Source: a candidate division WOR-3 bacterium (GTDB lineage Bacteria > Hydrothermota > UBA3072 > B12-G15). Taken from it: a DNA stretch of 64,000 bases. Position numbers and translations under genes: made by a program. The DNA lies in contig CBFGJG010000003.1 of the NCBI GenBank assembly GCA_965649055.1, forward strand, positions 22,998 through 86,997, given 5' to 3'. Positions 2,128 to 48,320 of the stretch are shown here, in pieces (within the stretch, counting starts at the first letter, position 1; the number at the start of each line of letters is the position of its first letter). Under the pieces are notes generated by a model. It saw only the letters and a list, made by a program, of their open reading frames with translations. It ran no database searches and was not told the DNA's origin.

Positions 2128-2355
2128 ATGGAGTGTGAATTGTGCGGTTGCTGTTCTTTTTGTAAAAAAAATATTACAGATCTTGGAGGAACTCTAAAAT
2201 ATGTAAGGTCTAAGTATTGTAAGAAAAACGCAGAGGATTGTGCAAGATTCATTGTTTATAAGGCTCTTGGAAGGGATAGGGTTCCTGATGATTTATTCCC
2301 GGGTGAAAAAGAAAGAGCTTTTAAGATAATAGAGAGGTTTAAAGAGAATAGATAG
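2128..2355 (+). CDS. Small cysteine-rich protein (C-x2-C-G-C-C-x2-C), unknown function
   Basis: 75-aa ORF preceded by a strong RBS (AAAGGGAGGAGG, 3 nt before the ATG). N-terminal cluster of six Cys (MECELCGCCSFCKK) plus two further Cys. Standalone transcription unit, convergent with the downstream gene. Confidence 0.5.
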   Translation: MECELCGCCSFCKKNITDLGGTLKYVRSKYCKKNAEDCARFIVYKALGRDRVPDDLFPGEKERAFKIIERFKENR

Positions 2356-2494: not shown

Positions 2495-2827
2495 TTAAGA
2501 AGCTTCTTCTTCGTTAGTTATCTGATTGAAAATCGGGATTATATTAAGACCAAAAAGAATCGAGCTCATAAAATGTTTACTTTTCTGTGCATAACCTTTT
2601 AAAAATGATAAGGAGAAAATTTTTATATCAATCGAAAAATCATAAGGAATTAAAACAGATGTTAGTTCCATTGCAAGCAAACCATTCCTGTCAAGATATG
2701 ATAGTCCAATAGATATAGATGGGAGAACATAAGATTTATTGTATAATCTTATTCCACCTAATTTCCCCTGTGACCATAAAAAGTAGTCATTATTATTTTC
2801 TTGTAAAGCAAACAGAATTAATATCAT
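2495..2827 (-). CDS. Hypothetical protein (last gene of long minus-strand operon)
   Basis: 110-aa ORF whose start abuts the stop of the upstream DUF362 gene with no gap. No recognisable motif. Confidence 0.3.
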   Translation of the reverse strand: MILILFALQENNNDYFLWSQGKLGGIRLYNKSYVLPSISIGLSYLDRNGLLAMELTSVLIPYDFSIDIKIFSLSFLKGYAQKSKHFMSSILFGLNIIPIFNQITNEEEAS

Positions 2828-3904
2828 TTATACCTCTATAATCTCGTATTTTCTTTCTCCAAGTCCTATCTTTTCAGCGTATTCAATCTGATAGGTTGAA
2901 TTTATTTCTGGATATATTATTGAAAATTTATCCTGATTTTCATCTATTTTTCTCCCAAAGAAAGAAGAAACACCTGCAGATGATTTCACAAGGTCAAAAG
3001 AACACTGGTCAATAGAAACAGGGTCATCAGAGATAAGTATACCTATATCAGGGACCATATAACCTTTTGAATGTGGATAACAATCACATTCAGGTGTTAT
3101 ATCCATCAGGATATTCACATAAACAACCTTTTTATTTATAATTGCACCTAGTGCATATTCAACCATCTTCTCCATAAACTCAATTGAGTGTGCATCCCAG
3201 CTTATTCCGATTGCATGAAAATGACAGAATACGATACATTCACCGCAACCAATACATTTCTTTTTATCTATAATTGCTATTTTATTTATAATCTCTATTG
3301 CTTTAGCAGGGCATATTAATTCACATTTTCTACATCCAGTGCATTTTTCTTTCCTTATTACAGGAATATTTCCAGAATGCATTGAAAGTTTTCCCTCCTT
3401 TGTTGAACATCCCATCCCGAGATTCTTTATAGCACCACCGAATCCAGAAAGTTCATGACCTTTGAAATGCGATAGACACAGAATCTTATCAGCATAGAAA
3501 ATACCTTCTGCAATCTTCACTTTCTTATAATGTTTCTTTTTTATCTCAACCTCAACCCCTGAATTACCTGAAAGACCGTCAGCAATGATTATGGGAGCAA
3601 AATCAAAACCATTCCATCTTGCAGTATTAAGATAATCTATTGCTGTTCCCCTTGAGCCTTTATAAAGGGTTGTAGTATCGGTTAGAAAAGGGTTTGTATT
3701 AAGGTTAACAAGTATCTCGTAAATCTTCCTTGCATAGATTGGTCTTACAAATGCAGTATTATCCTTCTCACCCATATGTAGTTTTATGGCAACAGAATCG
3801 TTCTGATCAAAGAATCTGTAATATCCACCTCTTTTAAAAATATCTTCAATCTTTTTTAAGATACTTTTTTCAGATTTTACAGGTATGAAATATACTTTGC
3901 TCAT
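2828..3904 (-). CDS. DUF362-domain protein with two embedded 4Fe-4S ferredoxin-type cluster motifs
   Basis: Two C-x2-C-x2-C-x3-CP motifs (CTGCRKCELICP and CIGCGECIVFC) embedded in a ~360-aa protein, the architecture typical of DUF362 proteins. 4-bp overlap with the upstream gene. Confidence 0.6.
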   Translation of the reverse strand: MSKVYFIPVKSEKSILKKIEDIFKRGGYYRFFDQNDSVAIKLHMGEKDNTAFVRPIYARKIYEILVNLNTNPFLTDTTTLYKGSRGTAIDYLNTARWNGFDFAPIIIADGLSGNSGVEVEIKKKHYKKVKIAEGIFYADKILCLSHFKGHELSGFGGAIKNLGMGCSTKEGKLSMHSGNIPVIRKEKCTGCRKCELICPAKAIEIINKIAIIDKKKCIGCGECIVFCHFHAIGISWDAHSIEFMEKMVEYALGAIINKKVVYVNILMDITPECDCYPHSKGYMVPDIGILISDDPVSIDQCSFDLVKSSAGVSSFFGRKIDENQDKFSIIYPEINSTYQIEYAEKIGLGERKYEIIEV

Positions 3905-4146
3905 TCTATCCCCAGTATTTTTTTTATTCTTGGTTCGAGGTAAACATTCTTATCAATTTTTTCCCTCAAAATCTGAATCAATAGTTTTTTTTTGAATGAA
4001 TCTGAAAGGTTCTTGTTTATAACAATGTATTTCTTCCTGTATATCCTGCATGCACCACCTGAAGATAGTATTCTATCAACATAGACTTTAAAACCCAGCT
4101 TCTCTGCTATATCAATTAAAAATTTAAGGTCTTCATTTTTTTTCAT
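3901..4146 (-). CDS. Small hypothetical protein
   Basis: 81-aa basic ORF translationally coupled at both ends: a 14-nt overlap with the phosphomannomutase gene and a 4-nt overlap with DUF362. Confidence 0.35.
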   Translation of the reverse strand: MKKNEDLKFLIDIAEKLGFKVYVDRILSSGGACRIYRKKYIVINKNLSDSFKKKLLIQILREKIDKNVYLEPRIKKILGIE

Positions 4147-5491
4147 TTATAAATCCCATTACTAAATCTCTTATCTCGTTAAGTCTTTTTTCATCCTTTG
4201 CCTCAAACCTTGCGACTATTACGGGTTGGGTGTTTGAAGCACGTACAAGTCCCCAACCATCACCAAAAAGAATCCTTGCGCCATCAATACCAATAATATC
4301 ATATTTCCCTTTGAAATGTTTAATTACGTCCTCCACAATCTTCCATTTTTTATCTTCGGTTGTATCTATTCTTATTTCAGGAGTTGTATAATAATAGGGG
4401 ATTTCTTTTATCATCGCGGATATATTTTTTTCAGAATTTGAAACAATATCATAAAGCCTTAATGAGGAAAATATAGCATCATCGTATCCATAGTAGTCAC
4501 CACCGAAGAATATATGCCCGCTCATTTCACCTGCTAATGGTGAATTCAATTCCTTCATCTTTGCTTTAATCAATGAATGTCCAGTCTTCCACATAAACGG
4601 TCTTCCACCTATTTTTTCTATGAATTCAGAAGCACCCTGCGAAGACTTAACATCAAATATTATGTAAGAATTGGGGTATTTCTTCAAAACATATTTAGAA
4701 AATATACAGAGAAGTTTGTCTCCCCAAACAATATTTCCTTTATCGTCGATAACACCTATCCTGTCCGCATCTCCGTCATATCCAATACCAAAATCAGCAT
4801 TATTTTCAAGAACCTTCTTTTTCAAAGATTGCATATATTCTGGGATTGTCGGGTCAGGAAGATGATTTGGAAAATCTCCATCAGGTTCGCAGAAAATACA
4901 TTCAAAATCAGCACCAATTGAATTGAATAACCTTGAAGCTATCTCACCAGCAGTTCCATTACCAGGATCTATAACTATCTTAAGTTTTTTATTTGGATAT
5001 GTGATTGAAAGTGTTTTCTCAACATAATCATCTTTAACATCTTTCTTTAGAATCTTACCTTTCCCTTTCATAAAATCATTCTTTAATATAATATTCTTTA
5101 TTTCCTGTATAGATTCTCCGAAAAGTGTCTCTTCTCCAATCATCATCTTTAAACCATTGTATTCCTTCGGATTGTGGCTTCCTGTTACCATAACACCGCC
5201 ATCAAAACCATAATGAAAAACTGTAAAATATAGAAGTGGTGTTGGACACATACCAATATCAATAACATCTATCCCTGTTGAAATGATTCCTTTGCAAAGT
5301 GCCTCTTTAATCCTTGGAGATGTCTTTCTTGCATCAAATCCAACTGCTACTTCATTCCCAATCCTTTTTCTTCTTAACATTGAACCGTATGCCTTACCTA
5401 TAAGTTCGACGATATCATCAGTTAATTCCTCATCTGCTATTCCTCTTATATCGTACATCCTGAAAATTTCTTCATTCATCATTACCTCCAT
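4133..5491 (-). CDS. Phosphomannomutase/phosphoglucomutase (alpha-D-phosphohexomutase family)
   Basis: N-terminal MYDIRGIADEELT, the phosphoserine loop VTGSHNPKEYNG, the metal-binding GYDGDADR-like motif (GYDGDADRIG) and the sugar-binding GEMSGH motif. 452 aa. Confidence 0.85.
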   Translation of the reverse strand: MEVMMNEEIFRMYDIRGIADEELTDDIVELIGKAYGSMLRRKRIGNEVAVGFDARKTSPRIKEALCKGIISTGIDVIDIGMCPTPLLYFTVFHYGFDGGVMVTGSHNPKEYNGLKMMIGEETLFGESIQEIKNIILKNDFMKGKGKILKKDVKDDYVEKTLSITYPNKKLKIVIDPGNGTAGEIASRLFNSIGADFECIFCEPDGDFPNHLPDPTIPEYMQSLKKKVLENNADFGIGYDGDADRIGVIDDKGNIVWGDKLLCIFSKYVLKKYPNSYIIFDVKSSQGASEFIEKIGGRPFMWKTGHSLIKAKMKELNSPLAGEMSGHIFFGGDYYGYDDAIFSSLRLYDIVSNSEKNISAMIKEIPYYYTTPEIRIDTTEDKKWKIVEDVIKHFKGKYDIIGIDGARILFGDGWGLVRASNTQPVIVARFEAKDEKRLNEIRDLVMGFINEKK

Positions 5492-5503
5492 ATTTAATTT
5501 TTT

Positions 5504-6346
5504 TTAAGTTCCTTTTTTAATTTTAATCTTTAACCCTATAATATGTGTAGGCTCAAAATATGAACCCGTAATTGTATAATACAATGAAATTTGGGAAAAA
5601 TCAAGTCCAATTCCGAATGAAATTTTTTTCAATTGTGAATAACCGGCCCTTATTGAGATAATGTCTCTTATTGTTATTTCAGAACCAAATGAGAAAAAAT
5701 TCTTATAATCGTTTAAAATATAAGAGATCTCAGCGAAACCATTATAACCTTCAAATTTATAAGGTAGTGATGTTGCAATTATTGTAGTCTGCGGTATTTT
5801 GTCTACTGTCTTTCCAAACCATGATATCTCAGTGCCCATAATGTCTTTTATTATCATTGAAATCCTTAATTTTTTTTCAAAGGTTAAACCGATGTCGTAT
5901 CCAAATCCTGTTCCATGAAAATCAACTATTTCCTGCTCATAGTTCTTAATATTAAATCCTATATTCACTAATTTCATCTTCGTTGCCAAAGAGAATGTCA
6001 GAACCCTTTCATTAACGCTAAAATAATCGATAGTTTCAGGGATAATGGTGTCTTCAATATCAGGGTTTAGTGGCATTTCACCTGATGTAAAATAATTTAT
6101 ACCAAAGGCAAGATATAAGCCATAGGCATTAAATCCAGTAGTAAGATTATAAAGATGAAAATTTTGAATAAGGTTTGTCCAGTCAATATAAAGGGAAGGG
6201 CTCTTGACACATATATTTGCTGGATTCCACCATATTGATGATATATCTTCATATGTGAAATAACTTGAACAGGAAATTCCTCTTGCACCTGCACCGGGAA
6301 ATAGATAATCGAAAGGAATACTGAAACTCAATAAAATCAATATCAT
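5504..6346 (-). CDS. Outer-membrane beta-barrel protein, PorV/FadL-like (candidate T9SS cargo shuttle)
   Basis: N-terminal FPGAGARGISCSSYFTYEDISSIWWNPANI resembles the conserved PorV/LptO motif (G-A-R-A-x-G-M-G-G-A...D-x-S-A-x-x-W-N-P-A-G). The remainder shows the alternating hydrophobic pattern of beta-strands. It sits immediately downstream of T9SS-CTD cargo genes with a 4-bp overlap. Confidence 0.45.
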   Translation of the reverse strand: MILILLSFSIPFDYLFPGAGARGISCSSYFTYEDISSIWWNPANICVKSPSLYIDWTNLIQNFHLYNLTTGFNAYGLYLAFGINYFTSGEMPLNPDIEDTIIPETIDYFSVNERVLTFSLATKMKLVNIGFNIKNYEQEIVDFHGTGFGYDIGLTFEKKLRISMIIKDIMGTEISWFGKTVDKIPQTTIIATSLPYKFEGYNGFAEISYILNDYKNFFSFGSEITIRDIISIRAGYSQLKKISFGIGLDFSQISLYYTITGSYFEPTHIIGLKIKIKKGT

Positions 6347-9300
6347 CTTTTCAATACCGCCATTTTTCTTTTTTCCTTTGTTTCAAAAATCCCAAGTTTA
6401 GCCCTGACAACGTAAAGGTAAACCCCATTAGGAATATAATTTCCATTATCGTCTCTTAAATGCCACTCAATTATATTTTTCCCTTCTTTCAAATCGTAGA
6501 AAACTTTTTTACAAACGATATTACCGGAAGGTTGATAAATTTCGAGAGTAGCAGAATCAGGTTTTTTTGTCAATTCAACTAAAAACTTTGTTAAATCCCT
6601 TGCGGGGTTTGGATAGTTTGAAAGAAAAGTAATTAAAAATGGTGTTTGTATATTTATGAATATATCTTTTGAAATCATATTCCCGTGAACATCGTAAGCG
6701 AAAAACTTTGCATTGTAGAAACCATCATTTAGGGAACTTTCAAGATTAAGATTCATAATGTTTAAATCCCTTGTTTCGTTCACTTCCAATATTATCTCTT
6801 TCTGGTTTATCATAAAATAAGGTTTTCTTATCCATATATCTATTCCATTATCGTCCTCAGCAGTAAGGTTTATTTTTATATTTCCATCCTTAGAATACAA
6901 CGTATCTTTTAATATTTTCACAATTGGTTTTGTATTATCACTGGTAAAACCGTAAGTGTAAAAACCTGTATCCTTCACCCAGACGCTATCCCCGGAAAGA
7001 TTAATCCATTTTAATTTCTTCCTTATATATATGGAACCATTTGATGAATCCGGAAAGATTTTTAGGAAAAATGGCTTTTGAATTGTATCATAATATATTA
7101 TTTTAAAAACCTTATTGAAATTATCAAAACTTCCAGGTTTAAAATCTTCCTGTTTTAAAGGGGGTTCGTATTCATCTTCAAATACAAAAAAATATCCATC
7201 TTTTTTAAATGTTTCTGGTAATATAGTTATTTCCCAGAATCTATCACTTATGATGTTTGTATCTAAATGATTAATTTTATAGAAATTTTTCTTCTTTATA
7301 TAATAGATTACATTATTATTTTCGTTTAGTTCGTTAATCCAGTTATAACTATCAATAAAAATCTTGAAATTTATATCCTTAAAAGTATCATTAACGAATT
7401 CTTCGATAGGGATTAAGACTTCTTCTTTTACCAAAGGTTTTATATCTGATATTATGGTATCATATATCCAATAATAATCATCATCTTTAAATTTATATAT
7501 TGACAATACTGTTGAGTCCGCTTTTTTTTCACCTGAATTTATAACATTTAATCTTAGTAATAATGTTTTGTTATCACAAAATATTTCCGGTTCTGTAAGG
7601 AATTTTAAATCCGACCTTTTTATAATATATTCTGAAAATATCCTTGACCTGTTGAAGTTTAGAGAATCAAACAATTCAATTCTAAAGTTCAGATTTAAAC
7701 CTTCTTTTATAATCGGAATTCTGCAATAATATGTTCCTGAAGAATCATTCATAAAAATCTTATTATTTAATATTCCGTCGTAACCAAATACACAGAATAT
7801 TGAATCAGGTTGAATCTTCAACTTTGCTTTTATATTTATTGTATCATTTAAACATAAAATCTCAGGATAATAGATTATACTTTCAAAAATATCCTTTTTA
7901 AATACGTTATCTTCACCTGCGATTGAGTAAAGGTTATTTTTCAATAAAGAGATAATCCTTGTATTTTCGGATAACAATTCTATATAAAATGAAGTATCTT
8001 TTGAATACCCGGTTTTATTAAAGGAATATTCATAAATATTTAAAGAATCAATCACTTTAAAATGGAATCTTCCTGTCATACTGTTTTCACATCTGATATA
8101 TAATGTGTCATTTTTATAAAGGTTAGAAAATTTAAGTGTATCTTTCGCAATCTTCAGTTTAAATAAAGGGTCGCCTATTAAATGATAACAAATGGAGTTA
8201 TATGAATCCGGAAATAGAAATTTATAATAAAAAATAATATCTCCAAGTCTTCTCAGGTCTTTTCTGAAAATTCCGTTCAGTAAAAATTTATCTGTGTGAA
8301 TATTATCAGAGAAATAAGTGAGCCCTGATGGTGCAACAGAACCTATCATTCCAACCCCGGGGAACATTACAGAATATTCACTAACGGATCTCAATTGCGG
8401 GTCATCCATTATACCATTAACACAGGAGAAGGCAAGCATAAAGGTTAGTTTCCCATAGTTTGTCAGTCTTGGTATATCATATATCCTGAAGTATCTTCCA
8501 GCCCCCAGATCTTCTTCACCACCATGACCGTGAAAATTAAATATAGTTTGACCATAAGAAAGAGCCCTTATAACTTCCTCCCATACGCTTGTCCCTTCCC
8601 TTGAATAAACACGTGTAATATCATATCCTGAAGGTATAATACTTTTTATGATCTGCTCAGAGATTACATCTGAATTTTGTAGTGCGTAATCAGCACCAAA
8701 GAATAATCTGTTTTCTTTTGGTTCATCAGAATTTGAACCATTTATTATCTTATCGATGTATCCTGCCATCTCTGTTCTTGTAATTGCGGGAATCCTGCCT
8801 ACCACGATATCTGGAAACTCGTCATTTCCACATATTTTTGAATACTCAAAATCAGAAGAATAGTATCCACCCAGAACATTTTTCATAATAACAGGGACAA
8901 GGTCAGAATTGTTTTTGTAGATATTTTTTGGGTCGTAAGTTCCCTTTCCCATAATGATAAGGTAATAGGGAGGATTATCGAGTTCAAAACAGTATCTCAA
9001 GAAGTCTTTTATCGCAAAAGGTGATTTTTCACCATAATTGAAACAGTTATAAATTTCGTCTGTTGTAAATATACTAACAGATATTGAATCATAAGATTCA
9101 TAATAATTTTTATAATTCAACGCATAATCATAAAATATCGGATGGGTTATAACAACAGCATCAGAACCATTGAAAGAGTTCATTTTATCTTCAATATTGA
9201 AATATCTTATATCTTTAGGAATCCTTTCCGTCCCTGTTAAATATACAATATAATTGGCTTTTCCATTGGTTGTATCCGAGAAAGTAACTGAATAACATTC

Positions 9301-10476
9301 TTTATCCGTTTCGATAACCGGATTAACAATTTTATATCCGTCTATTCTCATTATATTTATTCTGTTTGACTGAAAATTATTAATTGTCACCTTAAAATTA
9401 CTCTTTTCGCTCTTAAACTTCAAAATTTTCCCGTCTGATATGAATTTCCTTTTATAAAAAATTCTCAAATCTTTAAGATATATGAAAGATTGTGATTTAA
9501 TATTTATCTTTTTAATCTTCACATTGGTTGTGCATTGAATCTCTTGAAACGATTGTCCTTGAATATTAAGATTTTTTATGAATAAATCATTAACATATAA
9601 GTTTATATTCTGACTCAATAAAGAATTGTTATATAATTTTATCCTGATTATCCCGGAGTTATCATACCAATTTATTGTATCAAATAAGAATGTAAAAAAA
9701 GTATCCTGTTCGTAAAACCAGCATCCGGAACTTCTTGAAAAGATTTTTTCCTTATCGATGCATATAGAATCTTGGAAGAAATTCAAAACTTCATCGGATT
9801 CTTCTGTATTAATATGGATATAATGTTTTCCTTCACCTATCTTTAGCCAGTAATAGTCTAAAGTATCGAAATCCGATTTGTAATCTTCAGCATAAAAAAT
9901 CAAATAATCATTATTATTGAATATATTATCTCCGTCAATATCGTATACATCAACAGGGACTGTTTTATCTTTATGTTTTAATGATATCTCACTTATTGGT
10001 GGTGAGAAGTTAATATTGTTTTTTAACAACATTCTGTGTGTTAATTTATAAATACCTGAAGAATCAACAGAGATTCTTATTCCATCTTTTAATTTTATAC
10101 TAACTGAATTTCTTCTATTATTGCTGGAATTAAGTTGGTTCAGGACGATTTCATCATAAAATCTATTCTGTTTTAAGCTTAAACAACCATTTTTTTTAAA
10201 ATTAAAGTTAATTAAAATAACATCGTAATTTTTTATTTTTGTTGTATCAATCTCAATAATTAAAACCTTTCTTTTCCTGAAATCAAATGTCCCAATTATC
10301 CTTAATAAATCATTGCTTAACTTTTTTTCTCCGTTAAATAATTCATAATTAAATCCATACTCATCGGGAATAGAAATAATAGTTCTGTTTGAGATATCAT
10401 TATTTATAAATATCAGTGAGATTGATTTATCTGAATAATCTATTAATTTGAAAACCGAAAAAATTAAGAAAATCAT
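6343..10476 (-). CDS. Giant secreted caspase-fold cysteine peptidase, gingipain (C25)-like, with T9SS C-terminal sorting domain
   Basis: 1377 aa. A His-Gly catalytic-type motif (FNFHGHGGEEDLGAG) lies upstream of an Ala-x-Cys motif (TFMLAFSCVNG), the spacing and order expected for clan CD/C25 peptidases. The C-terminus (GVYLYVVRAKLGIFETKEKRKMAVLKR) matches the T9SS CTD strand pattern shared by other proteins in this window. Confidence 0.55.
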   Translation of the reverse strand: MIFLIFSVFKLIDYSDKSISLIFINNDISNRTIISIPDEYGFNYELFNGEKKLSNDLLRIIGTFDFRKRKVLIIEIDTTKIKNYDVILINFNFKKNGCLSLKQNRFYDEIVLNQLNSSNNRRNSVSIKLKDGIRISVDSSGIYKLTHRMLLKNNINFSPPISEISLKHKDKTVPVDVYDIDGDNIFNNNDYLIFYAEDYKSDFDTLDYYWLKIGEGKHYIHINTEESDEVLNFFQDSICIDKEKIFSRSSGCWFYEQDTFFTFLFDTINWYDNSGIIRIKLYNNSLLSQNINLYVNDLFIKNLNIQGQSFQEIQCTTNVKIKKINIKSQSFIYLKDLRIFYKRKFISDGKILKFKSEKSNFKVTINNFQSNRINIMRIDGYKIVNPVIETDKECYSVTFSDTTNGKANYIVYLTGTERIPKDIRYFNIEDKMNSFNGSDAVVITHPIFYDYALNYKNYYESYDSISVSIFTTDEIYNCFNYGEKSPFAIKDFLRYCFELDNPPYYLIIMGKGTYDPKNIYKNNSDLVPVIMKNVLGGYYSSDFEYSKICGNDEFPDIVVGRIPAITRTEMAGYIDKIINGSNSDEPKENRLFFGADYALQNSDVISEQIIKSIIPSGYDITRVYSREGTSVWEEVIRALSYGQTIFNFHGHGGEEDLGAGRYFRIYDIPRLTNYGKLTFMLAFSCVNGIMDDPQLRSVSEYSVMFPGVGMIGSVAPSGLTYFSDNIHTDKFLLNGIFRKDLRRLGDIIFYYKFLFPDSYNSICYHLIGDPLFKLKIAKDTLKFSNLYKNDTLYIRCENSMTGRFHFKVIDSLNIYEYSFNKTGYSKDTSFYIELLSENTRIISLLKNNLYSIAGEDNVFKKDIFESIIYYPEILCLNDTINIKAKLKIQPDSIFCVFGYDGILNNKIFMNDSSGTYYCRIPIIKEGLNLNFRIELFDSLNFNRSRIFSEYIIKRSDLKFLTEPEIFCDNKTLLLRLNVINSGEKKADSTVLSIYKFKDDDYYWIYDTIISDIKPLVKEEVLIPIEEFVNDTFKDINFKIFIDSYNWINELNENNNVIYYIKKKNFYKINHLDTNIISDRFWEITILPETFKKDGYFFVFEDEYEPPLKQEDFKPGSFDNFNKVFKIIYYDTIQKPFFLKIFPDSSNGSIYIRKKLKWINLSGDSVWVKDTGFYTYGFTSDNTKPIVKILKDTLYSKDGNIKINLTAEDDNGIDIWIRKPYFMINQKEIILEVNETRDLNIMNLNLESSLNDGFYNAKFFAYDVHGNMISKDIFINIQTPFLITFLSNYPNPARDLTKFLVELTKKPDSATLEIYQPSGNIVCKKVFYDLKEGKNIIEWHLRDDNGNYIPNGVYLYVVRAKLGIFETKEKRKMAVLKR

Positions 10477-11792
10477 CTTTTAATATGGATTATTTTTCTT
10501 TTTTCAATTCCATCTTTTTTATTTAGAATTAGAATGTAAATTCCCTGTGGATAATTTACAAATTCAATATCAAGCCATCCATTTTGAATTTCTTCCTCTT
10601 TTATTTTTCTACCGTCAACACCTATAAGTGTATATTTTTTTGCATCAACCTGGATTTCTAATTTTCTTTCAACTATATGACTTTCTGAAACAAAAAATTT
10701 CTTTTTGCCGTTGTCGTAAAACTTGTAAAAAATCTTTTTATCGGGACTGCCCAAAATATATCCGTTCCAGAAAACAAAAATGTTCCCTTCAGAATCCTTT
10801 TTTATCAATGGATTTGAACAAAGATATGAAGATTCATTAAGTTTTATCGGTTCATTTATATTGTCATCAAAATAGAATATATCACCATTTTCTGACCAGA
10901 CGAAACTCCTGTATTCGCTAATATCAAGGTCGATTTCTGTAAGACTATTTGAAATATGTATTGTTTCTTTATCCTTCCAGGAATTTTCATATTCCCTATA
11001 AATAATGTGAATCTTACCGTTCCTTAATTCATTCCAGATCACTCCTATTTTACCGGAATGAAAATCAGAAACAGGGTTAAATGAATTTACCATTGTATCT
11101 GATATTATAATTGAAGAACCTTCATTAAAATTTTTACATTTGATAACTATTTTCCCATTCTTAACTTCTTCGAATATTAAAAAAGGTGAATTATTATATA
11201 ATGCTATGGAAGGGAAACCCGCATATATTTCAGAGTTAGAGACGATTAAATCGCTGGACCAGATACCTCTTTGTAAATACTTGTACAATATTTCTGATAG
11301 TCCATTTCTTGTGTCCTGCCAGACAATATGTATTACATTATTCCTTAAAAGAACTGATGGATTTATAGACCAATTTCCATCATTTTCGGTTACATTTTCG
11401 ATACCGCTGAAAATACCGCCAGAAATATTATGGTAATATTTTCTTAAAAAAATCTCGTTCTGGAAATTCATATGTTGATAGGATATCCTTCTATCATCCC
11501 AGATAATGTATATACAACTATCAGTAAAGAGAAGATTAGAATATCCTGCCCATAGAGAATAGACACTTCCAGCCCTTGATACATTCTTAAAGTAATCTAT
11601 GTTACAGTTTTTATTAACCCTTGCAAAGTAAACTTCAAGATAAGGGCTTGTATAACTTGAAAGAAAACTTATATACACATTACCGTTATTATCTGTATCG
11701 AGAGAATGAACAAATGATGGCGAGAGTATATTAACCTTATCACCTATATTTAATAATTTCTCTTGTGACCAGAAAGAAATAATCAGAATCAT
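10473..11792 (-). CDS. Secreted repeat (beta-propeller/BNR-like) protein with T9SS C-terminal sorting domain
   Basis: 439 aa with recurring S/D-x-N/E-G-x-I-x-V/I-W/F strand motifs (SENGDIFYF, DSEGNIFVFW, SGKIGVIW, NGKIHIIY). C-terminal GIYILILNKKDGIEKRKIIHIKR is CTD-like. 4-bp overlaps on both sides. Confidence 0.5.
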   Translation of the reverse strand: MILIISFWSQEKLLNIGDKVNILSPSFVHSLDTDNNGNVYISFLSSYTSPYLEVYFARVNKNCNIDYFKNVSRAGSVYSLWAGYSNLLFTDSCIYIIWDDRRISYQHMNFQNEIFLRKYYHNISGGIFSGIENVTENDGNWSINPSVLLRNNVIHIVWQDTRNGLSEILYKYLQRGIWSSDLIVSNSEIYAGFPSIALYNNSPFLIFEEVKNGKIVIKCKNFNEGSSIIISDTMVNSFNPVSDFHSGKIGVIWNELRNGKIHIIYREYENSWKDKETIHISNSLTEIDLDISEYRSFVWSENGDIFYFDDNINEPIKLNESSYLCSNPLIKKDSEGNIFVFWNGYILGSPDKKIFYKFYDNGKKKFFVSESHIVERKLEIQVDAKKYTLIGVDGRKIKEEEIQNGWLDIEFVNYPQGIYILILNKKDGIEKRKIIHIKR

Positions 11793-13048
11793 TTTAATCT
11801 AATTATCTTCTTCAAAATCCCGTTTTTTTTTAAAAAATAAACACCATTCTTAGAAATAGAATTTTTTCTACCTGTAATATCCAAAATTAAACTATCATTT
11901 TCAAAAAGCATGTTATTCCCTGAACCAACGAGATTCCCTTCTTTGTCTATCAACCTGTAAGATATTATATTACCATCAAACCTTATAATTTCGCTTTTTT
12001 TTACCTCCATAAGACATACAATTGTATCTTCTTTTGATCCTTCAAGAAGAATTTCTTTATCTATTGTAATCTTATCTTTAGAAACAATCTCTAAATAACC
12101 ATCTAAGTTCGAAATAATTTTTTTATTATCTATTATAAGGTTTATACCATTATTCTTATCAACGAACATTTTTCTTTGATTGAGAAACCATTTCCACATT
12201 ATGCAGAAGGAATTAAAATCATTATAGTCCATTAATCCGTCAGGTAGGCAATAAATATCCGGGAGCCTACCAGAATAAGGACCTGTTTCAAAATATGTAT
12301 CATTGTTTAGAAAAGCATTCCTGAATATTACAAAATCAAGAGAATTAACCTGGAGGTCAAGATCGAAATCACCTAAAGGAGAAATTATATAATTTACATA
12401 TATATCATCTAAAGGGCTTCCATCTTCAAAATTGTTCCAGTTCCCGTCTATTTTATTTCCAAAGATATCCTTTACTGAATCACCATTAAATTTAAATACG
12501 AGGTTGTCATTAGAACGTGGAATAGGATAGAGGTAAACATAGATAGTATCTTTTTTTATTTTTATCTCTTTCTTTGAATAAAAGATTGTATCCTGATAAT
12601 TGTAGGAGAAAATTTCAGTTCCACTATTAAAACTTGAAGAATCTATGTGAGAATTGAAGACAAATTTGAAAAGCCTTCCATCCGTTATTCCCTGGACAGG
12701 GGTTATGCTAACAAGTTGTGGTGGAGCAGGTGTGGGAACTTTTATAGTATCCTTAAAGATTACCCCGTTCGTTAGTTTTGAAAAAAAAGTATAGTAATAA
12801 TAGTATCCAGGAGAGAGTGAAACTGAATCAATAAACATATATGGTTTTAATGGCTCAAGGGGAATTCTTAGAAAACACCACCATTCATTTGGTGAGTTTG
12901 CAAATCTATCATATCTTCTTACGATAAACAATGATTCAATGGAACTTGAATCGGGGGATACAAATGTTATAAGGTTGAATGATTTGTATTTTGTTATTGA
13001 AAGATTATAGAGAAATGATATCTCAATAAATAACAATCGTTCCTCCAT
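11789..13048 (-). CDS. Secreted protein with dockerin-like Ca-binding repeat and T9SS CTD-like C-terminus
   Basis: 419 aa. GDFDLDLQVNSLDFVIFRNAFL fits the dockerin loop-helix pattern D-x-D-x-D-x-x-V-N-x-x-D-x3-L, and a partial second copy (DGLMDYNDFNSF) follows. The C-terminus NGVYFLKKNGILKKIIRLK is CTD-like. Confidence 0.4.
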   Translation of the reverse strand: MEERLLFIEISFLYNLSITKYKSFNLITFVSPDSSSIESLFIVRRYDRFANSPNEWWCFLRIPLEPLKPYMFIDSVSLSPGYYYYYTFFSKLTNGVIFKDTIKVPTPAPPQLVSITPVQGITDGRLFKFVFNSHIDSSSFNSGTEIFSYNYQDTIFYSKKEIKIKKDTIYVYLYPIPRSNDNLVFKFNGDSVKDIFGNKIDGNWNNFEDGSPLDDIYVNYIISPLGDFDLDLQVNSLDFVIFRNAFLNNDTYFETGPYSGRLPDIYCLPDGLMDYNDFNSFCIMWKWFLNQRKMFVDKNNGINLIIDNKKIISNLDGYLEIVSKDKITIDKEILLEGSKEDTIVCLMEVKKSEIIRFDGNIISYRLIDKEGNLVGSGNNMLFENDSLILDITGRKNSISKNGVYFLKKNGILKKIIRLK

Positions 13049-13742
13049 TTAGTGTATCTACAGGTATTTCAAATCCAAGTGAATCAAATATCTTTCCTTC
13101 CTTTATTTTAAATTCATATTTTCCTGTTTCATTTGAAGAAAATTTGAAATTCCCGATTATGAAATCCTGCTCAGGAAATCCATTCATGTTTGTCCTATAA
13201 ATCTCAAGTGAACATTGATATTCTTTGACTAAAACAATCGGTAGTGAATTCCCTGAAAAAACAGAGCTGTCTATCCTGTATTCGATTAAATTAATCTCTT
13301 TATCCCATGCCAATTTAACATATTCAAAACTATGTGTTTTTAGATTTTCACCTTTTAAGAGGATGTTAATATCCTGATATAAGCGCAATGAGTCAAAAAT
13401 AGGGGAGATTGAGAACCCATTTTTTAAACCATCGATACAGAAGATAATTTCAGGATAATTTTCTTCTTTTTCACCAAGGATATTTTTACCCCTTACCCAG
13501 AAATTATGCCACCCATCGTCGAGAATAAATGATACCGATTCAGAGATTGTCCAGTCTGATAATTTACCGTCAATTGAATACTGATAATATACCGTGCCAT
13601 CACCTTTCCAGACAATCTTTACAATGTTTGTGTTTATAATAGAACAATTTTCAGGACCTTTAATTATATTTGTCTTTGGAGATATTAGTTTCTCATTATA
13701 ACATCCTATCAGGAAAATGATTAGAATCAATGGTTTCTTCAT
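13023..13742 (-). CDS. Lipoprotein, unknown function
   Basis: N-terminal MKKPLILIIFLIGCYNE has a lipobox (L-I-G-C). 239 aa. 4-bp overlap with the upstream PfkB kinase gene. Confidence 0.5.
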   Translation of the reverse strand: MKKPLILIIFLIGCYNEKLISPKTNIIKGPENCSIINTNIVKIVWKGDGTVYYQYSIDGKLSDWTISESVSFILDDGWHNFWVRGKNILGEKEENYPEIIFCIDGLKNGFSISPIFDSLRLYQDINILLKGENLKTHSFEYVKLAWDKEINLIEYRIDSSVFSGNSLPIVLVKEYQCSLEIYRTNMNGFPEQDFIIGNFKFSSNETGKYEFKIKEGKIFDSLGFEIPVDTLNGGTIVIY

Positions 13743-14605
13743 ATTCCGGAAAGATAATTATATTTTTCCTTTATAGAATTTATTTTATCAAGGATACTGT
13801 CTCCGTTTATTCTTTCCAGAATCTCAACTGTATTTTTTACTGATAAGAAAGGATCTTTTGTATTCAGGAAGAAAGATATAAAAATTCCTGAAAATATATC
13901 ACCTGCACCAATAATATGTTTTTTCTCAGGATTTTTTGATACATAATGTTCAAGTCTTTTCTTATTGTATATATATGCACCTTTTTCAGCATCCGAAACT
14001 ATTATTATCTTATCATCAGGAAATATCTCAATACCTTCAGGGAAAAAACTGTGAACCAGAGCATAATATTCCCTCATATTCATCTGTATTATATCAAAAT
14101 TTTCTATGAGGATACGAGATTCTTCTTTTTCAAGCATTTTCTGGAATCTCTCACCATTTTCCTTTATACCTAATGTAAGGCTATGCACATCAAGCATTTT
14201 AAATGGTATTTTCAATTCTTTGATCCTATTCAGTGTTTCATATTTGAATTCCCAGCCCATCACAGGATTAATGAGAATAAGTTCAATATCTTCATCCATG
14301 TTTTCTAATAAACTTATATCTATTTCAGGTGAATATGGTGTTATGAATTCATACCTTTCATTATTGTAAACGTGAAGGACATTCCTGTTTGTCATTTCAA
14401 TCTCTATAACATATTTCAAGTCAATATTAGGTGTCATTAAGCTCATGAATTCTTTTTTTATATCCTTTCCGAGATAGGTTACAGGAAAAATCTTGATCCT
14501 CCTGTCAAGTGCTAAAGATAAAAGATTATATGTTATTCCACCAAGAGATTCAATATTCCCAATTTTGTCATAACTTATACTTCCTGCAATACCGACATTT
14601 CTCAT
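13739..14605 (-). CDS. PfkB-family carbohydrate kinase (first gene of operon)
   Basis: C-terminal HIIGAGDIFSGIF matches the PfkB GAGD anion-hole/ATP motif. The N-terminal Gly-rich sugar-binding region is VGIAGSISYDKIG. 288 aa. Confidence 0.55.
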   Translation of the reverse strand: MRNVGIAGSISYDKIGNIESLGGITYNLLSLALDRRIKIFPVTYLGKDIKKEFMSLMTPNIDLKYVIEIEMTNRNVLHVYNNERYEFITPYSPEIDISLLENMDEDIELILINPVMGWEFKYETLNRIKELKIPFKMLDVHSLTLGIKENGERFQKMLEKEESRILIENFDIIQMNMREYYALVHSFFPEGIEIFPDDKIIIVSDAEKGAYIYNKKRLEHYVSKNPEKKHIIGAGDIFSGIFISFFLNTKDPFLSVKNTVEILERINGDSILDKINSIKEKYNYLSGI

Positions 14606-14647
14606 TTTAATATTATAAAAAATAATAAAAAATTTTCAATATAAATC

Positions 14648-14676
14648 TTGACATTTTTTTTATTTTTGATTATTTT
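14648..14676 (+). promoter_or_regulatory. Sigma-70-type promoter (TTGACA-17-TATTTT) about 9 nt before the ATG at 14686
   Basis: TTGACA at 14648-14653 and an A/T-rich -10 17 nt downstream. No Shine-Dalgarno sequence precedes the ATG, suggesting a leaderless or very short-leader mRNA. Confidence 0.4.
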
Positions 14677-14685
14677 TTAATTAAT

Positions 14686-15066
14686 ATGATTATTTTATTT
14701 ATAGCACAGTTAGGAATGATACAGTCTAATATAAGTATAAACATCCAGGTTTGGGGTGAGGTTAGGAATCCAGGTATATTCAATGTCCCACCAAACATTA
14801 ATGTTATTGAGGCAATATCATTTGCAGGTGGTCCACTTAATACATCTGATCTTTCTAATGTAAAGATAGTTAGTTTGAACGGGAACATAAAGTTCATAAA
14901 TATTTCTTCTTATCTAAAAGGAGGAAAGGTCGACATTCCAATGATCTCACCCGGAGATATAGTTATCGTTCCAAGATCTGCCCTTTCAAATCTCGTCGAG
15001 TTTGTTAGATTTATGAGTATCGTAATAGGTGCTGCAGGAATTATCTTTTCCATAGTGGGGAGATAA
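14686..15066 (+). CDS. Polysaccharide export protein fragment (Wza-like Poly_export/PES domain only)
   Basis: GEVRNPGIFNVPPNINVIEAISFAGGPLNTSDLSNVKIVSL...ISPGDIVIVP matches the Wza N-terminal polysaccharide-export domain. At 126 aa it lacks the SLBB repeats and outer-membrane helix of full-length Wza. Confidence 0.6.
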   Translation: MIILFIAQLGMIQSNISINIQVWGEVRNPGIFNVPPNINVIEAISFAGGPLNTSDLSNVKIVSLNGNIKFINISSYLKGGKVDIPMISPGDIVIVPRSALSNLVEFVRFMSIVIGAAGIIFSIVGR

Positions 15067-17165
15067 TGTCTCCTGAAACTTATCAGTATGACCTTTTGAA
15101 GTTTATAAAAATATTGAAGAGGAGGCAATGGGTAATATATAATTCAATTATTTTACTTGTTTTTCTTACTATCATATATATATTTGTAGCACCAAAATAC
15201 TATGAAGCAAGTTCCAAAATATTGATTACTTCACGAAAATATACACTTGGTCCTGAAATTATGTATAAAGATGAGGAAAAAGAGATAGAAAACGAACTTG
15301 AAATACTTAATAGTGCTAATTTTATTTTAAAGGTTTTCGAAAATCTAAAGATGAAGAAAAAACTTCCGCTGTTCTCGTCTAATAACCCGTACTATGAATT
15401 CAGCAGAAATATTAGCATCCTGCCCATAGGAAGGAGTAATACAATTAGATTAAGTTATGTATCAAAAAATCCTGAAGAAGCAATGATTGTTGCAAATACA
15501 CTTGCTGAAACTGCAGTTGAATTTTCACTTGACTTTGAAAAGGCAGAAATAATACAGGTTATGAAATTTCTTGAGACACAGATTCCTTTAGCACAGGAAA
15601 GATTAAAGGATATTGAAAAAAAACTTGAAGAGTATAAAAGTTCTACCGGAATATTATCTGTTTCTGAATACGTAAATGTGCTCTCAAACGAAATTTCAAG
15701 TTTTGACCATATTTATAATGAAACAATACTTGAATATGCCAGTAAAGAAACCGCATTGAAGTTTTACAAGGAAAGATTGAATGACATAAAGAAAAACCTA
15801 TCTGATGACTTGAGTGGAATAGTGAACGCATCTATAAAAAACATTAGAACAGAACTATTCAATCTTGAAAATGAACTTTTGACATTTGAACTTAAAGGTG
15901 TATCCGAGGATAATCCCAGGAAGATGTTATTGAAGAAAAACATTGAAGATTTAAAGAAGAAGTTGAGGGAAGAGGTTCTGAAGGTTGCCGGTGATAGTTT
16001 ATTTGTTAATGATCCTTTATCTTTAACCTTCGATTTATCACTTAAAATAGTAGAGACAGAGATAGATTTTGAGATACTCAAATCAAAGAAACAGGTTCTT
16101 GAGAACCTTAAAGAGAATTATGACAAAAAATGGCGTTCTTTCCCATATCAGGAAACCAAACTTGTCAGTCTAATAAGGGAGTATAAGATTGCAGAAGATG
16201 TTGTAAAACTTTTGACTGAGAAATATGAAGAATTCAGGATTGAAGAGGCAAAGAAAATAGGGAATGTAAGGATAATTGAATTTGCAACAATCCCAATTTT
16301 TCCTGTAAGGCCACAGAAAAAATTAAGTCTGTTACTGGGATTCTTTGGAGGTGTATTTATCGGTATCATTGGTGTTATAATCCTTGAAGTATTTGCAAAC
16401 AAAATAGTCGATGAAGATGACTTAAAGGAATTTACTCATATTCCTGTTATTGGTATTATCCCTGAAGTTAAACCCAAAGAAATGGGTGGAGGGCTTACGA
16501 GGTATCTTGTTACAAATTTTGATAACAATAATAATATCGTCGAATCCTACAGAATATTAAAAACAAATCTTAGTTTTATGAATGTTGATAAGAAATTAAA
16601 GACTTTTCTTATAACAAGTTCTTTACCGGAAGAAGGTAAGACAACTGTATGTGTTAATCTTGCGTTAACAACAGCTCTTGCAGGTTATAAAACATTGATT
16701 ATTGATTTTGATCTGAGAAAACCTGCTCTCCATAAGGTTTTTGGTACCGATAATTCAAAGGGACTGACAGAGGTGGTTTTTGACATTAAAAAAACTGATG
16801 GAATTATGAACAAAATAAATGATAATCTCTATTTAATCACATCGGGTAGAATTCCACCGGATGCATCTGAGTTGATAAATTCGGATAGTATGAAAGACTT
16901 AATTGAGAAGGTTTCAAAAGGGTTTGATTATGTTTTCTTTGATTCCACTCCATTTATTGTTCCTGAAACAAGGCTTATAGGTATGCTGAGTGACTCTATT
17001 ATACTTGTTTTAAGAAGCAACTTTGAAAGCCCCGATGTTCTAAACAGAACAATTAATGTTATTCATTCTATCAACAAGAAGATTATAGGAATAGTTATAA
17101 CACGATTACTAAGAAAGCATCATCATTATTATTCTTCTTATTATTATTACAAGGAGGAAAAATGA
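15066..17165 (+). CDS. Wzc-type polysaccharide co-polymerase / bacterial tyrosine autokinase (BY-kinase)
   Basis: N-terminal Wzz-like region with a transmembrane segment. Walker A (SLPEEGKTT), A' (LIIDFDLRKP) and B (YVFFDSTP) motifs are present. The C-terminal tail HHHYYSSYYYYKEEK provides the Tyr cluster used for autophosphorylation. 699 aa, with an ATGA overlap to the next gene. Confidence 0.8.
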   Translation: MSPETYQYDLLKFIKILKRRQWVIYNSIILLVFLTIIYIFVAPKYYEASSKILITSRKYTLGPEIMYKDEEKEIENELEILNSANFILKVFENLKMKKKLPLFSSNNPYYEFSRNISILPIGRSNTIRLSYVSKNPEEAMIVANTLAETAVEFSLDFEKAEIIQVMKFLETQIPLAQERLKDIEKKLEEYKSSTGILSVSEYVNVLSNEISSFDHIYNETILEYASKETALKFYKERLNDIKKNLSDDLSGIVNASIKNIRTELFNLENELLTFELKGVSEDNPRKMLLKKNIEDLKKKLREEVLKVAGDSLFVNDPLSLTFDLSLKIVETEIDFEILKSKKQVLENLKENYDKKWRSFPYQETKLVSLIREYKIAEDVVKLLTEKYEEFRIEEAKKIGNVRIIEFATIPIFPVRPQKKLSLLLGFFGGVFIGIIGVIILEVFANKIVDEDDLKEFTHIPVIGIIPEVKPKEMGGGLTRYLVTNFDNNNNIVESYRILKTNLSFMNVDKKLKTFLITSSLPEEGKTTVCVNLALTTALAGYKTLIIDFDLRKPALHKVFGTDNSKGLTEVVFDIKKTDGIMNKINDNLYLITSGRIPPDASELINSDSMKDLIEKVSKGFDYVFFDSTPFIVPETRLIGMLSDSIILVLRSNFESPDVLNRTINVIHSINKKIIGIVITRLLRKHHHYYSSYYYYKEEK

Positions 17166-18256
17166 TAAGAAATGGTTTAATCCTAGGTATTTTAGGTTTT
17201 GTTGTAGTTTTTGGTGTTTTATTTGTTACTGATAAATTTACAAAATCAGATTCACAGAATATTGTCGAAATGATCGCGAACGATTATATTGCTCGTGCAA
17301 AATTACTTTCACTAATAATCAGAGAATCGATCGAGATGGAAGACGAGATAAGTTCAACTGCTATCTTGAATTTGGTTAAGTCAAATTTCAGTGATGTTTT
17401 AAACCTGACTATTATAGGAAAAGATGGAACAGTACTTGCTGATCTTGACTCCACAAAACTTCTAAGCAAATTTAAAGGGACGATGGTAGGGAGTAAGGAA
17501 TTTCTAAAATTATCAGAAAATAGTAGATATTATCTTGGTGTTCCTATTAAATCCGGGAATAACAAAATAGGTGAGATACATATCACCCTTGACTCCAAAA
17601 AATATTCTGCACAAAAACCTTTATTTGACATTAATAAACTGATATACTCAGGAGCAGCTTTATTAATTTTCTTTATAGTTGGTCTTTTTATTGGAAAGGG
17701 AGGAAAGAAAACAGAGATAGTAGAATCACCTGATACATCAGGATTACAGAGGGATGTTGAGACATTAAAAGAGGTTATCTCCAATCTTAAGAAAGAAGAA
17801 GAAGATACTATAAAAATGATAGAAGATAAAAAGAATGAGATTGAGAGGATTGAAAAGGAGATAAAAAATAAGAAAAAAGAACTTGAGGCAATAAATAGTG
17901 AGTTCGGGAACATTGCAGAGAAAAGGAAAGAACTCGAAAATCTAAAGACGGAGTTTGCTTCAATTGAAGTGAAGCTTTCTGATAAAAAGGCTGAACTTGA
18001 AGAGCTGGATAGAAAATTAAAAGAGAGAAAAGAAATGGTTCCTGCTGAAAATGAAGAAGAAGCTTTGATAGGTGGACTTATTGATAACGATATTGATTCA
18101 AGGATAGAAGAAAAGAAGAAACAAGAAGTTGAATTGACACAGAGGATAGTTGCAAAAAGAAGGGAAGAAATCACTATATCAGCAAGGATTGAGGCTAAAA
18201 AGAAAGAATTAATAGAACTTGAGAAAAAAATAGATACTTTAAAAAAACAGGCATAA
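17162..18256 (+). CDS. Membrane-anchored coiled-coil protein
   Basis: Two transmembrane segments (LILGILGFVVVFGVLFV and AALLIFFIVGLFIG) flank a ~150-aa domain. A long Lys/Glu-rich heptad-like region follows (KKNEIERIEKEIKNKKKELEAINSE...). Translationally coupled to wzc. Confidence 0.5.
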   Translation: MIRNGLILGILGFVVVFGVLFVTDKFTKSDSQNIVEMIANDYIARAKLLSLIIRESIEMEDEISSTAILNLVKSNFSDVLNLTIIGKDGTVLADLDSTKLLSKFKGTMVGSKEFLKLSENSRYYLGVPIKSGNNKIGEIHITLDSKKYSAQKPLFDINKLIYSGAALLIFFIVGLFIGKGGKKTEIVESPDTSGLQRDVETLKEVISNLKKEEEDTIKMIEDKKNEIERIEKEIKNKKKELEAINSEFGNIAEKRKELENLKTEFASIEVKLSDKKAELEELDRKLKERKEMVPAENEEEALIGGLIDNDIDSRIEEKKKQEVELTQRIVAKRREEITISARIEAKKKELIELEKKIDTLKKQA

Positions 18257-33284: not shown

Positions 33285-33365
33285 AGATTTATTTTTATTA
33301 ATATGTTGAAAATCAATAATGGATAATCGGGAACAAAAATTTTTTATAAATAATAGGAGGTAAAT

Positions 33366-35301: not shown

Positions 35302-35306
35302 TTAAA

Positions 35307-35765: not shown

Positions 35766-35767
35766 AT

Positions 35768-39424: not shown

Positions 39425-39426
39425 TT

Positions 39427-48155: not shown

Positions 48156-48320
48156 ATTTTTTAGTATATTTTAATAATAATATTTGTCAAGTTTTTGGCG
48201 TCATGTGTTAACATTTGACATTTTCGTATATTTAGTTTCAATTGAATTAAGAAATATTGAATTGTGATAGAAAAAAGAAAATGATTTGACATAAAGTAAA
48301 ATATGCTTAATAATAAAAAT

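Follow-up and report, generated by a model that had tools for sequence, protein, structure and literature searches.

In a 64-kb stretch of genomic DNA (64,000 nt, hereafter the window) of a candidate division WOR-3 bacterium, a scan for open reading frames (ORFs) found that ten consecutive minus-strand ORFs fill positions 2495-14605, with the lengths given in the original prediction, which had been made from the letters of this region. We regard the cluster as probably a conserved, lineage-specific WOR-3 operon built around the known porU-porV attachment pair of type IX secretion systems (T9SS), accompanied by probable client proteins, a lipoprotein and framing cytoplasmic genes. The system itself is known and of no new kind; what is unusual is how its genes are arranged. 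The ten ORFs are listed below.

Gene 1, 13739..14605, minus strand: divergent kinase of the PfkB/ribokinase superfamily, 288 aa, at the head of the operon.
Gene 2, 13023..13742, minus strand: lipoprotein, 239 aa, with signal peptide MKKPLILIIFLIG|C and lipobox LIGC.
Gene 3, 11789..13048, minus strand: putative surface protein, 419 aa, that has a dockerin/EF-hand-like loop and ends in a putative C-terminal domain of T9SS type.
Gene 4, 10473..11792, minus strand: beta-propeller with BNR/sialidase-like repeats and a putative T9SS type A C-terminal domain, 439 aa.
Gene 5, 6343..10476, minus strand: homologue of the PorU-type T9SS C-terminal signal peptidase/sortase, 1377 aa.
Gene 6, 5504..6346, minus strand: outer-membrane beta-barrel of the PorV/PorQ family, unusually short at 280 aa.
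Gene 7, 4133..5491, minus strand: AlgC-type phosphomannomutase/phosphoglucomutase (PMM/PGM), 452 aa.
Gene 8, 3901..4146, minus strand: conserved 81-aa protein, always between the PMM and DUF362 genes.
Gene 9, 2828..3904, minus strand: protein of the DUF362 family, 358 aa, into which a 2x[4Fe-4S] ferredoxin module is inserted.
Gene 10, 2495-2827 with an out-of-frame continuation to about 2360, minus strand: 110-aa ORF.

The identities first proposed for these genes (kinase, lipoprotein, dockerin-like protein, BNR-like protein, C25 peptidase, barrel, phosphomannomutase and DUF362 protein) hold in family and profile searches. A different role emerged for the 1377-aa C25 protein, which had been taken for T9SS cargo. 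By its profile and structure-database matches, gene 5 is the PorU-type T9SS sortase homologue of this lineage and not mere cargo. The predicted C25 peptidase domain occupies residues 441-774 (203 bits to Pfam Peptidase_C25, PF01364) and is followed by a CARDB domain (962-1056) and a C-terminal sorting domain (1297-1360), the last with 30.1 bits to FlgD_ig (PF13860), above the cutoff of 27. The match to the hidden Markov model (HMM) NF033707 for the T9SS sortase reaches 242.6 bits (E=6.6e-72); it takes in positions 8-744 of the 1095 in the model and with them the PorU-specific N-terminal region. The best PDB match is Porphyromonas gingivalis PorU (6ZA2), which is aligned in three collinear segments, and the C-terminal region of gene 5 aligns to the C-terminal domain of the same structure. 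The catalytic dyad His651/Cys685 is intact, with its codons at window positions 8524-8526 and 8422-8424. The surrounding motifs, FHGHGG and SCVNG, line up with the dyad of gingipain R and with PorU 6ZA2, and His651 and Cys685 are invariant in nine homologues. The Pfam scan found no gingipain propeptide domain in gene 5. With gene 5 being of PorU type, the supposed pairing of a cargo protein with its shuttle is therefore the already known porU-porV gene pair.

Relatives of PorU were sought in a genome scan with a four-sequence PorU alignment; the matches from Acidobacteriota were set aside, sharing the C25 domain only. Just downstream of the cluster in two close relatives, at L001 16005-20615 and L013 4921-9549 (both minus strand), lies a cargo-type C25 peptidase of about 1540 aa, which combines a Por_Secre_tail with CarboxypepD_reg and MAM-like domains and has no counterpart at the corresponding place of the window. 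In L001, the NF033707 match of this second C25 protein is limited to the catalytic core (model positions 352-676, 75 bits), and its sorting tail is of the standard, cargo-like kind.

Gene 6 belongs to the PorV/PorQ barrel family according to profile comparisons, which bears out the PorV-like barrel of the original prediction. The family model NF033709 aligns essentially full length (residues 17-275 with model positions 11-325 of 326; 63.1 bits, E=3.2e-17). No match was obtained to the PorV equivalog model NF033710, and the scores to the PorQ (43.7 bits) and PorV2 (39.1 bits) equivalogs are both far under the cutoffs; a PorV role of gene 6, as opposed to a PorQ role, is inferred from its adjacency to porU. 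A 58%-identical homologue from candidate division WOR-3 carries the UniRef name PorV/PorQ family protein. An exhaustive HMM search returned 789 relatives at E<=1e-3, and of 60 that were aligned, 59 match PorV_fam. The profile of gene 6 with 59 remote relatives matches the solved Flavobacterium johnsoniae PorV (6H3I_F) with E=3e-34 and 121.8 bits, and CymD and TodX, both of the FadL family, come next among the PDB matches with E-values near 1e-5. This places the 280-aa protein among PorV/FadL-like barrels. A shallow alignment of five gene 6 sequences gave chance matches only against the PDB, and PorV was reached once the remote relatives had been added.

The comparison of gene order that had been suggested as a check revealed that genes 1-9 are kept as a unit in relatives, together with a divergently transcribed operon on the other side of the promoter region. 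The divergent genes are the following.

Divergent three-gene operon, 14686..18256, plus strand: conserved together with the cluster.
Small SLBB protein, 14686-15066, plus strand: Pfam SLBB domain.
Wzz/GNVR/P-loop Wzc-like co-polymerase, 15066-17165, plus strand: Pfam Wzz, GNVR and AAA_31 domains.
Coiled-coil membrane protein of 364 aa, 17162-18256, plus strand: third gene of the SLBB/Wzc operon.

In the close relatives L001 (PorU 64% identical) and L002, L012 and L013 (56%), genes 1-9 occur with similar overlaps and with the divergent SLBB/Wzc genes. The genome scan added L014 and L015, the latter titled candidate division WOR-3, which have an identical gene order at 41% GC, compared with about 30% here; the SLBB/Wzc arrangement is found in L001, L002, L012, L014 and L015. 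Protein identities in L014 are 41% for gene 1, 40% for genes 2 and 3, 33% for gene 4, 37% for gene 5, 35% for gene 6, 69% for gene 7, 47% for gene 8 and 65% for gene 9; in the divergent operon they are 55% for the SLBB protein, 44% for the Wzc-like protein and 42% for the 364-aa protein. The flanks of the L014 locus differ: one carries homologues of window 44030-46456, the other homologues of 42767-43989. Since the gene order is the same and the flanks are rearranged, the block of twelve genes (genes 1-9 and the divergent three) constitutes a conserved unit, and its conservation beside rearranged flanks argues for selection on the unit. Synteny of genes 1-9 and the divergent operon, extending down to 33-69% protein identity, exceeds what chance would give. 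Genes 1-5 are also kept in L007 and L008 at 33-43% identity, and in four divergent relatives the operon still opens with the PfkB gene, at 40-43% identity.

Outside the lineage, nothing but the PorU-PorV pair is retained, namely in L004 and the Marinimicrobia locus L005, which represent distant lineages of the FCB (Fibrobacterota-Chlorobiota-Bacteroidota) superphylum. The latter (contig Ga0335111_1373791, 10001-16110) encodes a PorU-like protein, a PorV-like protein overlapping by 4 nt, and a small SLBB protein 35% identical to that of the window. A recurrent PorU/PorV-SLBB association across two FCB lineages is suggested by this arrangement.

Genes 3 and 4 are likely clients of the PorU/PorV pathway, to judge from their C-termini. 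The Por_Secre_tail/TIGR04183 searches that had been proposed gave a mixed outcome: gene 4 has a sub-threshold match of 20.4 bits to TIGR04183 at its extreme C-terminus (residues 381-435), and gene 3 has no direct model match. The C-terminus of gene 3 can be aligned to the gene 4 and gene 5 sorting domains (GR[KR]..G[IV]Y..KK..K), and a fragment of its L008 orthologue matches PF18962 weakly (E=0.008). Gene 3 combines Ig-like folds with a dockerin-like loop. The dockerin matches are weak (16 bits to NF041540; 15 bits to PF00404 in the L001 orthologue), and the loop is clearer in the L014 orthologue with the motif GDFNLDGYVDSKDY. Remote homologues of gene 4 carry BNR, BNR_2 and Por_Secre_tail domains. 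The AlphaFold2 (AF2) model of gene 4, with a predicted local distance difference test (pLDDT) score of 82.5, comprises a single beta-propeller followed by a C-terminal beta-sandwich, and Foldseek searches with it returned the propellers of CylK, a rhamnose-GlcA lyase, sialidases and TolB. The lipobox of gene 2 is kept in six orthologues, and its identity is 40-43% in L007, L014 and L015; no Pfam or NCBIfam family matched this protein. The notion that genes 2 and 3 form one frameshifted protein was dropped, because gene 3 possesses a short, conserved hydrophobic N-terminus of its own and, in L007, starts past the stop of gene 2.

Very short hydrophobic N-termini (MILIISFW, MIFLIFSVF, MILILLSFS, MILILFAL, MIILFIAQ) are a shared feature of the predicted exported proteins of genes 3, 4, 5, 6 and 10 and of the SLBB protein, which start at 13048, 11792, 10476, 6346, 2827 and 14686, respectively. 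The pattern is conserved in orthologues, and other exported proteins of the window have canonical MKK... signal peptides. Longer ORFs with normal signal peptides were excluded for genes 3, 4, 5 and 10 by in-frame stops 0-2 codons upstream. Beyond the cluster, a 163-aa protein at 63210-63701 (minus strand) carries a sorting domain with 28.7 bits to TIGR04183 (cutoff 23). A PETase/dienelactone-hydrolase-like alpha/beta hydrolase at 56301-57392 (minus strand) has a sub-threshold tail of 16.1 bits, which a local sorting-domain HMM matches at E=9e-6. Sorting by this pathway is therefore not restricted to the operon.

The two operons are separated by a short gap in which promoter elements of both strands may be located.

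Divergent promoter region, 14606..14685, between the strands: 80-bp gap between the two operons.

The best promoter-like match of the scan, TTGAAA-16-TATAAT (11/12), lies on the minus strand at 14639..14612 and ends 6 nt before the ATG of gene 1. The position of this -10 box suggests a leaderless first gene, and the gene 1 mRNA is probably leaderless. On the plus strand, CTTGACA (14647-14653, with TTGACA at 14648-14653) is conserved in all five orthologous gaps, including those of L001, L002, L014 and L015, even at about 37% PorU identity; TTGACA is likely to be the -35 box of the SLBB/Wzc operon. TATAAT is conserved in the three of these gaps that are closely related. The two operons may be co-regulated, considering that the plus-strand -35 box lies about 10 bp from that of the cluster. 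Within the cluster, neither promoter-like nor terminator-like matches are enriched over shuffled sequences. Three minus-strand terminator-like hairpins were found, all weak and inside ORFs, so that the search for internal terminators, by which the original prediction of one operon could have been overturned, produced no convincing one. Genes 1-9 are devoid of a Shine-Dalgarno-like motif, and overlapping starts with such a motif amount to 1/8 in the cluster versus 17/21 elsewhere in the window (Fisher p=0.0014).

At its 5' end the surface module is framed by the cytoplasmic gene 1, and at its 3' end by the cytoplasmic genes 7, 8 and 9. Gene 1 scores 24.2 bits to Pfam PfkB (PF00294), just short of the cutoff of 25.8, which its L001 (39.6 bits) and L002 (38.3 bits) orthologues pass. 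Both catalytic motifs of PfkB kinases, GAGD and NxxE, are invariant in six orthologues. Its equivalog and PDB profile matches (KDG kinase, ribokinase) are too weak for the assignment of a substrate. All four PGM_PMM Pfam domains (I-IV) of gene 7 were matched above cutoffs. Gene 8 matched no Pfam or NCBIfam family and is present in L001, L002, L013 and L014. Gene 9 matches PF04015 with 142 bits as well as Fer4 families. DUF362 is in the same Pfam clan as the N-terminal domain of the LarA racemase/epimerase (PMC11770544), which is a lead and not a function.

Gene 10 is probably a frame-disrupted and decaying gene for a small outer-membrane barrel, and not a stable member of the operon. Its continuation in frame 2 gives a barrel-like C-terminus ending in ...FNFIMNLGYIE*, and there is a weak match to DUF2715. 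The gene is not conserved: a faintly similar 52-aa ORF occurs in L002 and L013, none was called in L001, and a GAF-GAF-HD-GYP regulator takes the place in L014. The 3' boundary of the cluster is marked by a convergent gene at 2128-2355 (plus strand) for a 75-aa cysteine-rich protein (MECELCGCCSFC...) with a strong ribosome-binding site, GGAGGAGG; this gene is kept in L001.

Past the SLBB/Wzc operon, a tRNA-Leu gene, a GalT-like gene and a sugar-1-phosphate nucleotidyl-transferase gene were found, the latter two 4-6 kb away. Farther along the window, 46461-54751 may be a locus for surface-glycan or lipid modification, with two DUF6798 proteins (46461-48155 and 51075-52790, minus strand), a PMT_2 protein (48303-50249, plus strand), assigned by Pfam to the dolichyl-phosphate-mannose-protein mannosyltransferase family, and a TPR protein (52808-54751, plus strand). 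Minor pilins of a type IV pilus are encoded in a cluster at 32886-39825 (plus strand), with the N-terminal methylation motif, a PilW-like protein and a PilY1-like protein of 1218 aa. The cluster is consistent with the pili reported for a cultured WOR-3 strain, which is diderm and has genes for lipopolysaccharide (LPS) (PMC12285271).

PorU is the sortase that attaches anionic LPS (A-LPS), and its gene is adjacent to porV in P. gingivalis (PG0026 and PG0027; PMC5445135). The WOR-3 pair resembles the porU-porV genes and the PorQ/U/V/Z complex of that species in that a C25 enzyme with a C-terminal domain, an intact dyad and the PorU N-terminal region adjoins a PorV/PorQ barrel. In P. gingivalis, however, 75 bp separate the two genes, each of which is predicted to have its own transcript, and no cargo genes stand beside T9SS components (PMC5445135), whereas the WOR-3 genes overlap by 4 nt and share a predicted operon with sorting-domain proteins and sugar-phosphate enzymes. 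Further differences are the scores below curated family cutoffs, the absence of an identified PorZ or PorQ, and the host, which is not a member of Bacteroidota. Gene 6 is like PorV of F. johnsoniae (6H3I chain F), a FadL-like barrel of 14 strands, in that its profile aligns end to end and the N-terminal G-x-GAR...NPA motif is shared; 14 strands are predicted by its low-confidence model. However, it has 280 aa compared with 402 aa in the solved chain and is thus about 120 residues shorter. The Marinimicrobia triad has the same succession of a PorU-type gene, a 4-nt overlap, a PorV-like barrel gene and then a small SLBB gene, but its operon lacks the kinase, PMM, DUF362 and sorting-domain cargo genes, and its SLBB gene is co-directional whereas that of the window is divergent.

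The closest structure to gene 7 in the PDB is the PMM/PGM (AlgC) of Pseudomonas aeruginosa, which aligns full length with 396 bits. AlgC supplies sugar-1-phosphates for alginate and LPS. A similar logic is reportedly found in the exosortase/PEP-CTERM systems described by Haft and colleagues, in which a sorting transpeptidase and its clients are said to be encoded beside Wzc-type polysaccharide export genes. The proteins and signals are unrelated, and exosortases are said to be inner-membrane enzymes, unlike PorU, which acts at the surface.

Already known are PorU, PorV, the porU-porV adjacency and the occurrence of T9SS in the wider FCB superphylum, the last according to PMC12421860, and the WOR-3 barrel had been named by automated annotation. 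Recent work concerns glycan or LPS anchoring in Prevotella and Cytophaga. Full-text literature searches retrieved no paper linking WOR-3 to T9SS. New are the operon architecture, with cargo, sugar enzymes and a neighbouring exporter, and the reduced proteins.

A number of observations weigh against a functional operon around a PorU/PorV pair. Gene 5 stays below the curated NF033707 cutoff (242.6 bits against 420; distant PorU-like proteins adjoining PorV genes reach 220-418 bits), gene 6 below that of NF033709 (63.1 bits against 90) and gene 4 just under that of TIGR04183 (20.4 bits against 23), and the 512 bits of gene 7 to PgmG (NF046027) are below the equivalog cutoff of 600. The AF2 model of gene 6 shows its 14 strands with low confidence (pLDDT 52.6, pTM 0.59), and Foldseek with this low-confidence model found generic outer-membrane barrels only (FadL with TMq 0.54, OmpG, porins) and not PorV. 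The short N-termini of the predicted exported proteins are without the usual Lys/Arg n-region. No SprA/Sov or PorK/L/M/N was present among the scanned proteins of the window, and a complete T9SS is thus not established. The AT-rich DNA yields many promoter-like sites in the cluster, 88 found versus 78 expected. The other points of this kind concern gene overlap and the sugar enzymes, and they also favour the most serious alternative, which we hold to be possible but distinctly less probable than the preferred reading, namely that only genes 2-6 form a functional surface module, while the kinase, PMM/PGM, 81-aa and DUF362 genes are unrelated housekeeping genes that share the transcript for want of intergenic space in a streamlined genome and are held in position by inertia. 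The window is extremely compact, with about 24-35% GC and about 97% coding sequence in a greedy gene set. The junctions from gene 1 to gene 10 measure -4, -26, -4, -4, -4, +12, -14, -4 and 0 nt, that is, five ATGA-type 4-nt overlaps, two longer overlaps, one abutting pair and one gap. The original prediction that the genes are joined by 4-nt or short overlaps is thus correct for seven of the nine junctions, and the functional linkage at which co-translation was taken to hint gets no support from overlap: 26 of 47 same-strand neighbour pairs in the window overlap, 12 by exactly 4 nt, and the frequency in the cluster (7/9) does not differ significantly from that in the rest of the window (19/38; Fisher p=0.16). 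Overlap is the packing norm of the genome, and therefore overlap alone is no evidence of functional linkage; its use as a sign of special coupling was rejected. A longer co-directional run of about 23 genes (23789-46456) exists in the same window. The only gapped junction, of 12 nt, lies between genes 6 and 7. In L014, PMM and DUF362 show far higher identity (65-69%) than the surface genes do (33-41%), a pattern to be expected of housekeeping passengers. Of 80 metagenomic loci holding the nearest PMM relatives from outside the lineage (at most 56% identity), not one encodes PorU, PorV, DUF362 or PfkB nearby, and a nucleotidyl-transferase gene is near the PMM relative in 10 of them; in other phyla, PorU and PorV alone stay adjacent. 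Against passengers kept by inertia stands the 12-gene block itself, which is intact with both flanks rearranged in genomes about 10% apart in GC and at protein identities down to 33%, as do the PfkB gene that remains first in four divergent relatives and the surroundings rich in surface-glycan genes (SLBB/Wzc, nucleotidyl-transferase, GalT-like gene). The presence of sugar-phosphate genes and of a back-to-back polysaccharide exporter makes a link to surface glycan synthesis plausible. A dedicated role of the kinase and PMM genes in glycan anchoring, for which the ground is the conserved linkage within one WOR-3 lineage, beyond which the linkage does not extend, is nevertheless less likely than not; housekeeping genes carried along in a compacted genome would explain these data as well. 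That all parts form one co-regulated surface-display cassette, in which PorU/PorV, dedicated clients, the sugar-phosphate enzymes and the SLBB/Wzc exporter would attach proteins to a Wzc-exported polysaccharide and not to LPS, appears unlikely.

Two other explanations are far less probable still. One takes gene 5 literally as cargo, as in the original prediction, namely as a secreted gingipain-like protease, with gene 6 a generic FadL/porin-type transporter and no sorting machinery in the cluster; we consider it highly improbable. The C25 domain is indeed common to gingipains, the PDB match of gene 5 to gingipain R (33 bits) is close to that of PorU (35 bits), both PorU and PorV scores are under curated cutoffs, and Foldseek pointed to OmpG, FadL and porins. 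However, gene 5 covers the PorU model far beyond the catalytic core to which the true cargo-type C25 protein of the lineage is confined, its three segments are collinear with 6ZA2 and the gingipain propeptide domain is missing, while the gene 6 profile is closer to the solved PorV than to FadL-family proteins by many orders of magnitude in E-value (3e-34 versus 1e-5), and the PorU-PorV pair recurs in distant phyla. The other explanation, which we find equally hard to credit, is a complete attachment complex in which gene 4, its C-terminal domain retained, would function like PorZ and bring the glycan anchor to PorU, giving a minimal PorZ-PorU-PorV machine with its substrate supply. It is suggested by the position of gene 4, a propeller resembling glycan enzymes and bearing a sorting domain, directly upstream of porU and overlapping it, and by a propeller protein that precedes another PorU-like gene (P0004) as well. 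The candidate was rejected on the grounds that the NCBIfam PorZ model (NF052228) has no match in gene 4 at E<0.1 and the 50 best Foldseek matches in the PDB do not include PorZ. Moreover, PorZ has two propellers and the gene 4 model one, and the operon is without a second, PorQ-like barrel.

For the conserved operon around the porU-porV pair, which remains the preferred explanation, the following mechanism may be proposed. Transcription would most likely start at the sigma-70-type promoter in the 80-bp gap shared with the SLBB/Wzc operon and would give a single transcript for the cluster. Termination-reinitiation at the overlapping stop and start sites may serve the downstream genes, which are without Shine-Dalgarno motifs. 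By analogy with P. gingivalis, the products of genes 3, 4 and 5 would cross the inner membrane via Sec, and a T9SS translocon encoded elsewhere would recognise their C-terminal domains. The PorV-like barrel could then hand the clients to the PorU-like enzyme, which would cut off their C-terminal domains and may join the proteins to a glycolipid or glycan at the surface. In the same analogy, the kinase and PMM/PGM might provide hexose-1-phosphates for the nucleotide sugars of the surface glycan or of the exported polysaccharide.

The attachment chemistry of T9SS is known in detail only for P. gingivalis, where the anchor is A-LPS. A sortase, a shuttle, two candidate clients and sugar enzymes beside an exporter make up a small testable set for the anchor of sorted proteins in a bacterium outside Bacteroidota, and the very reduced PorV (280 aa) and the PorU variants are usable for structure-function comparison. 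Should the sugar genes be passengers only, what remains would be another porU-porV pair in a compact genome, which is ordinary. If the genes do form a single surface-display cassette, this minimal and self-contained set would point directly to the chemistry of T9SS anchors outside Bacteroidota.

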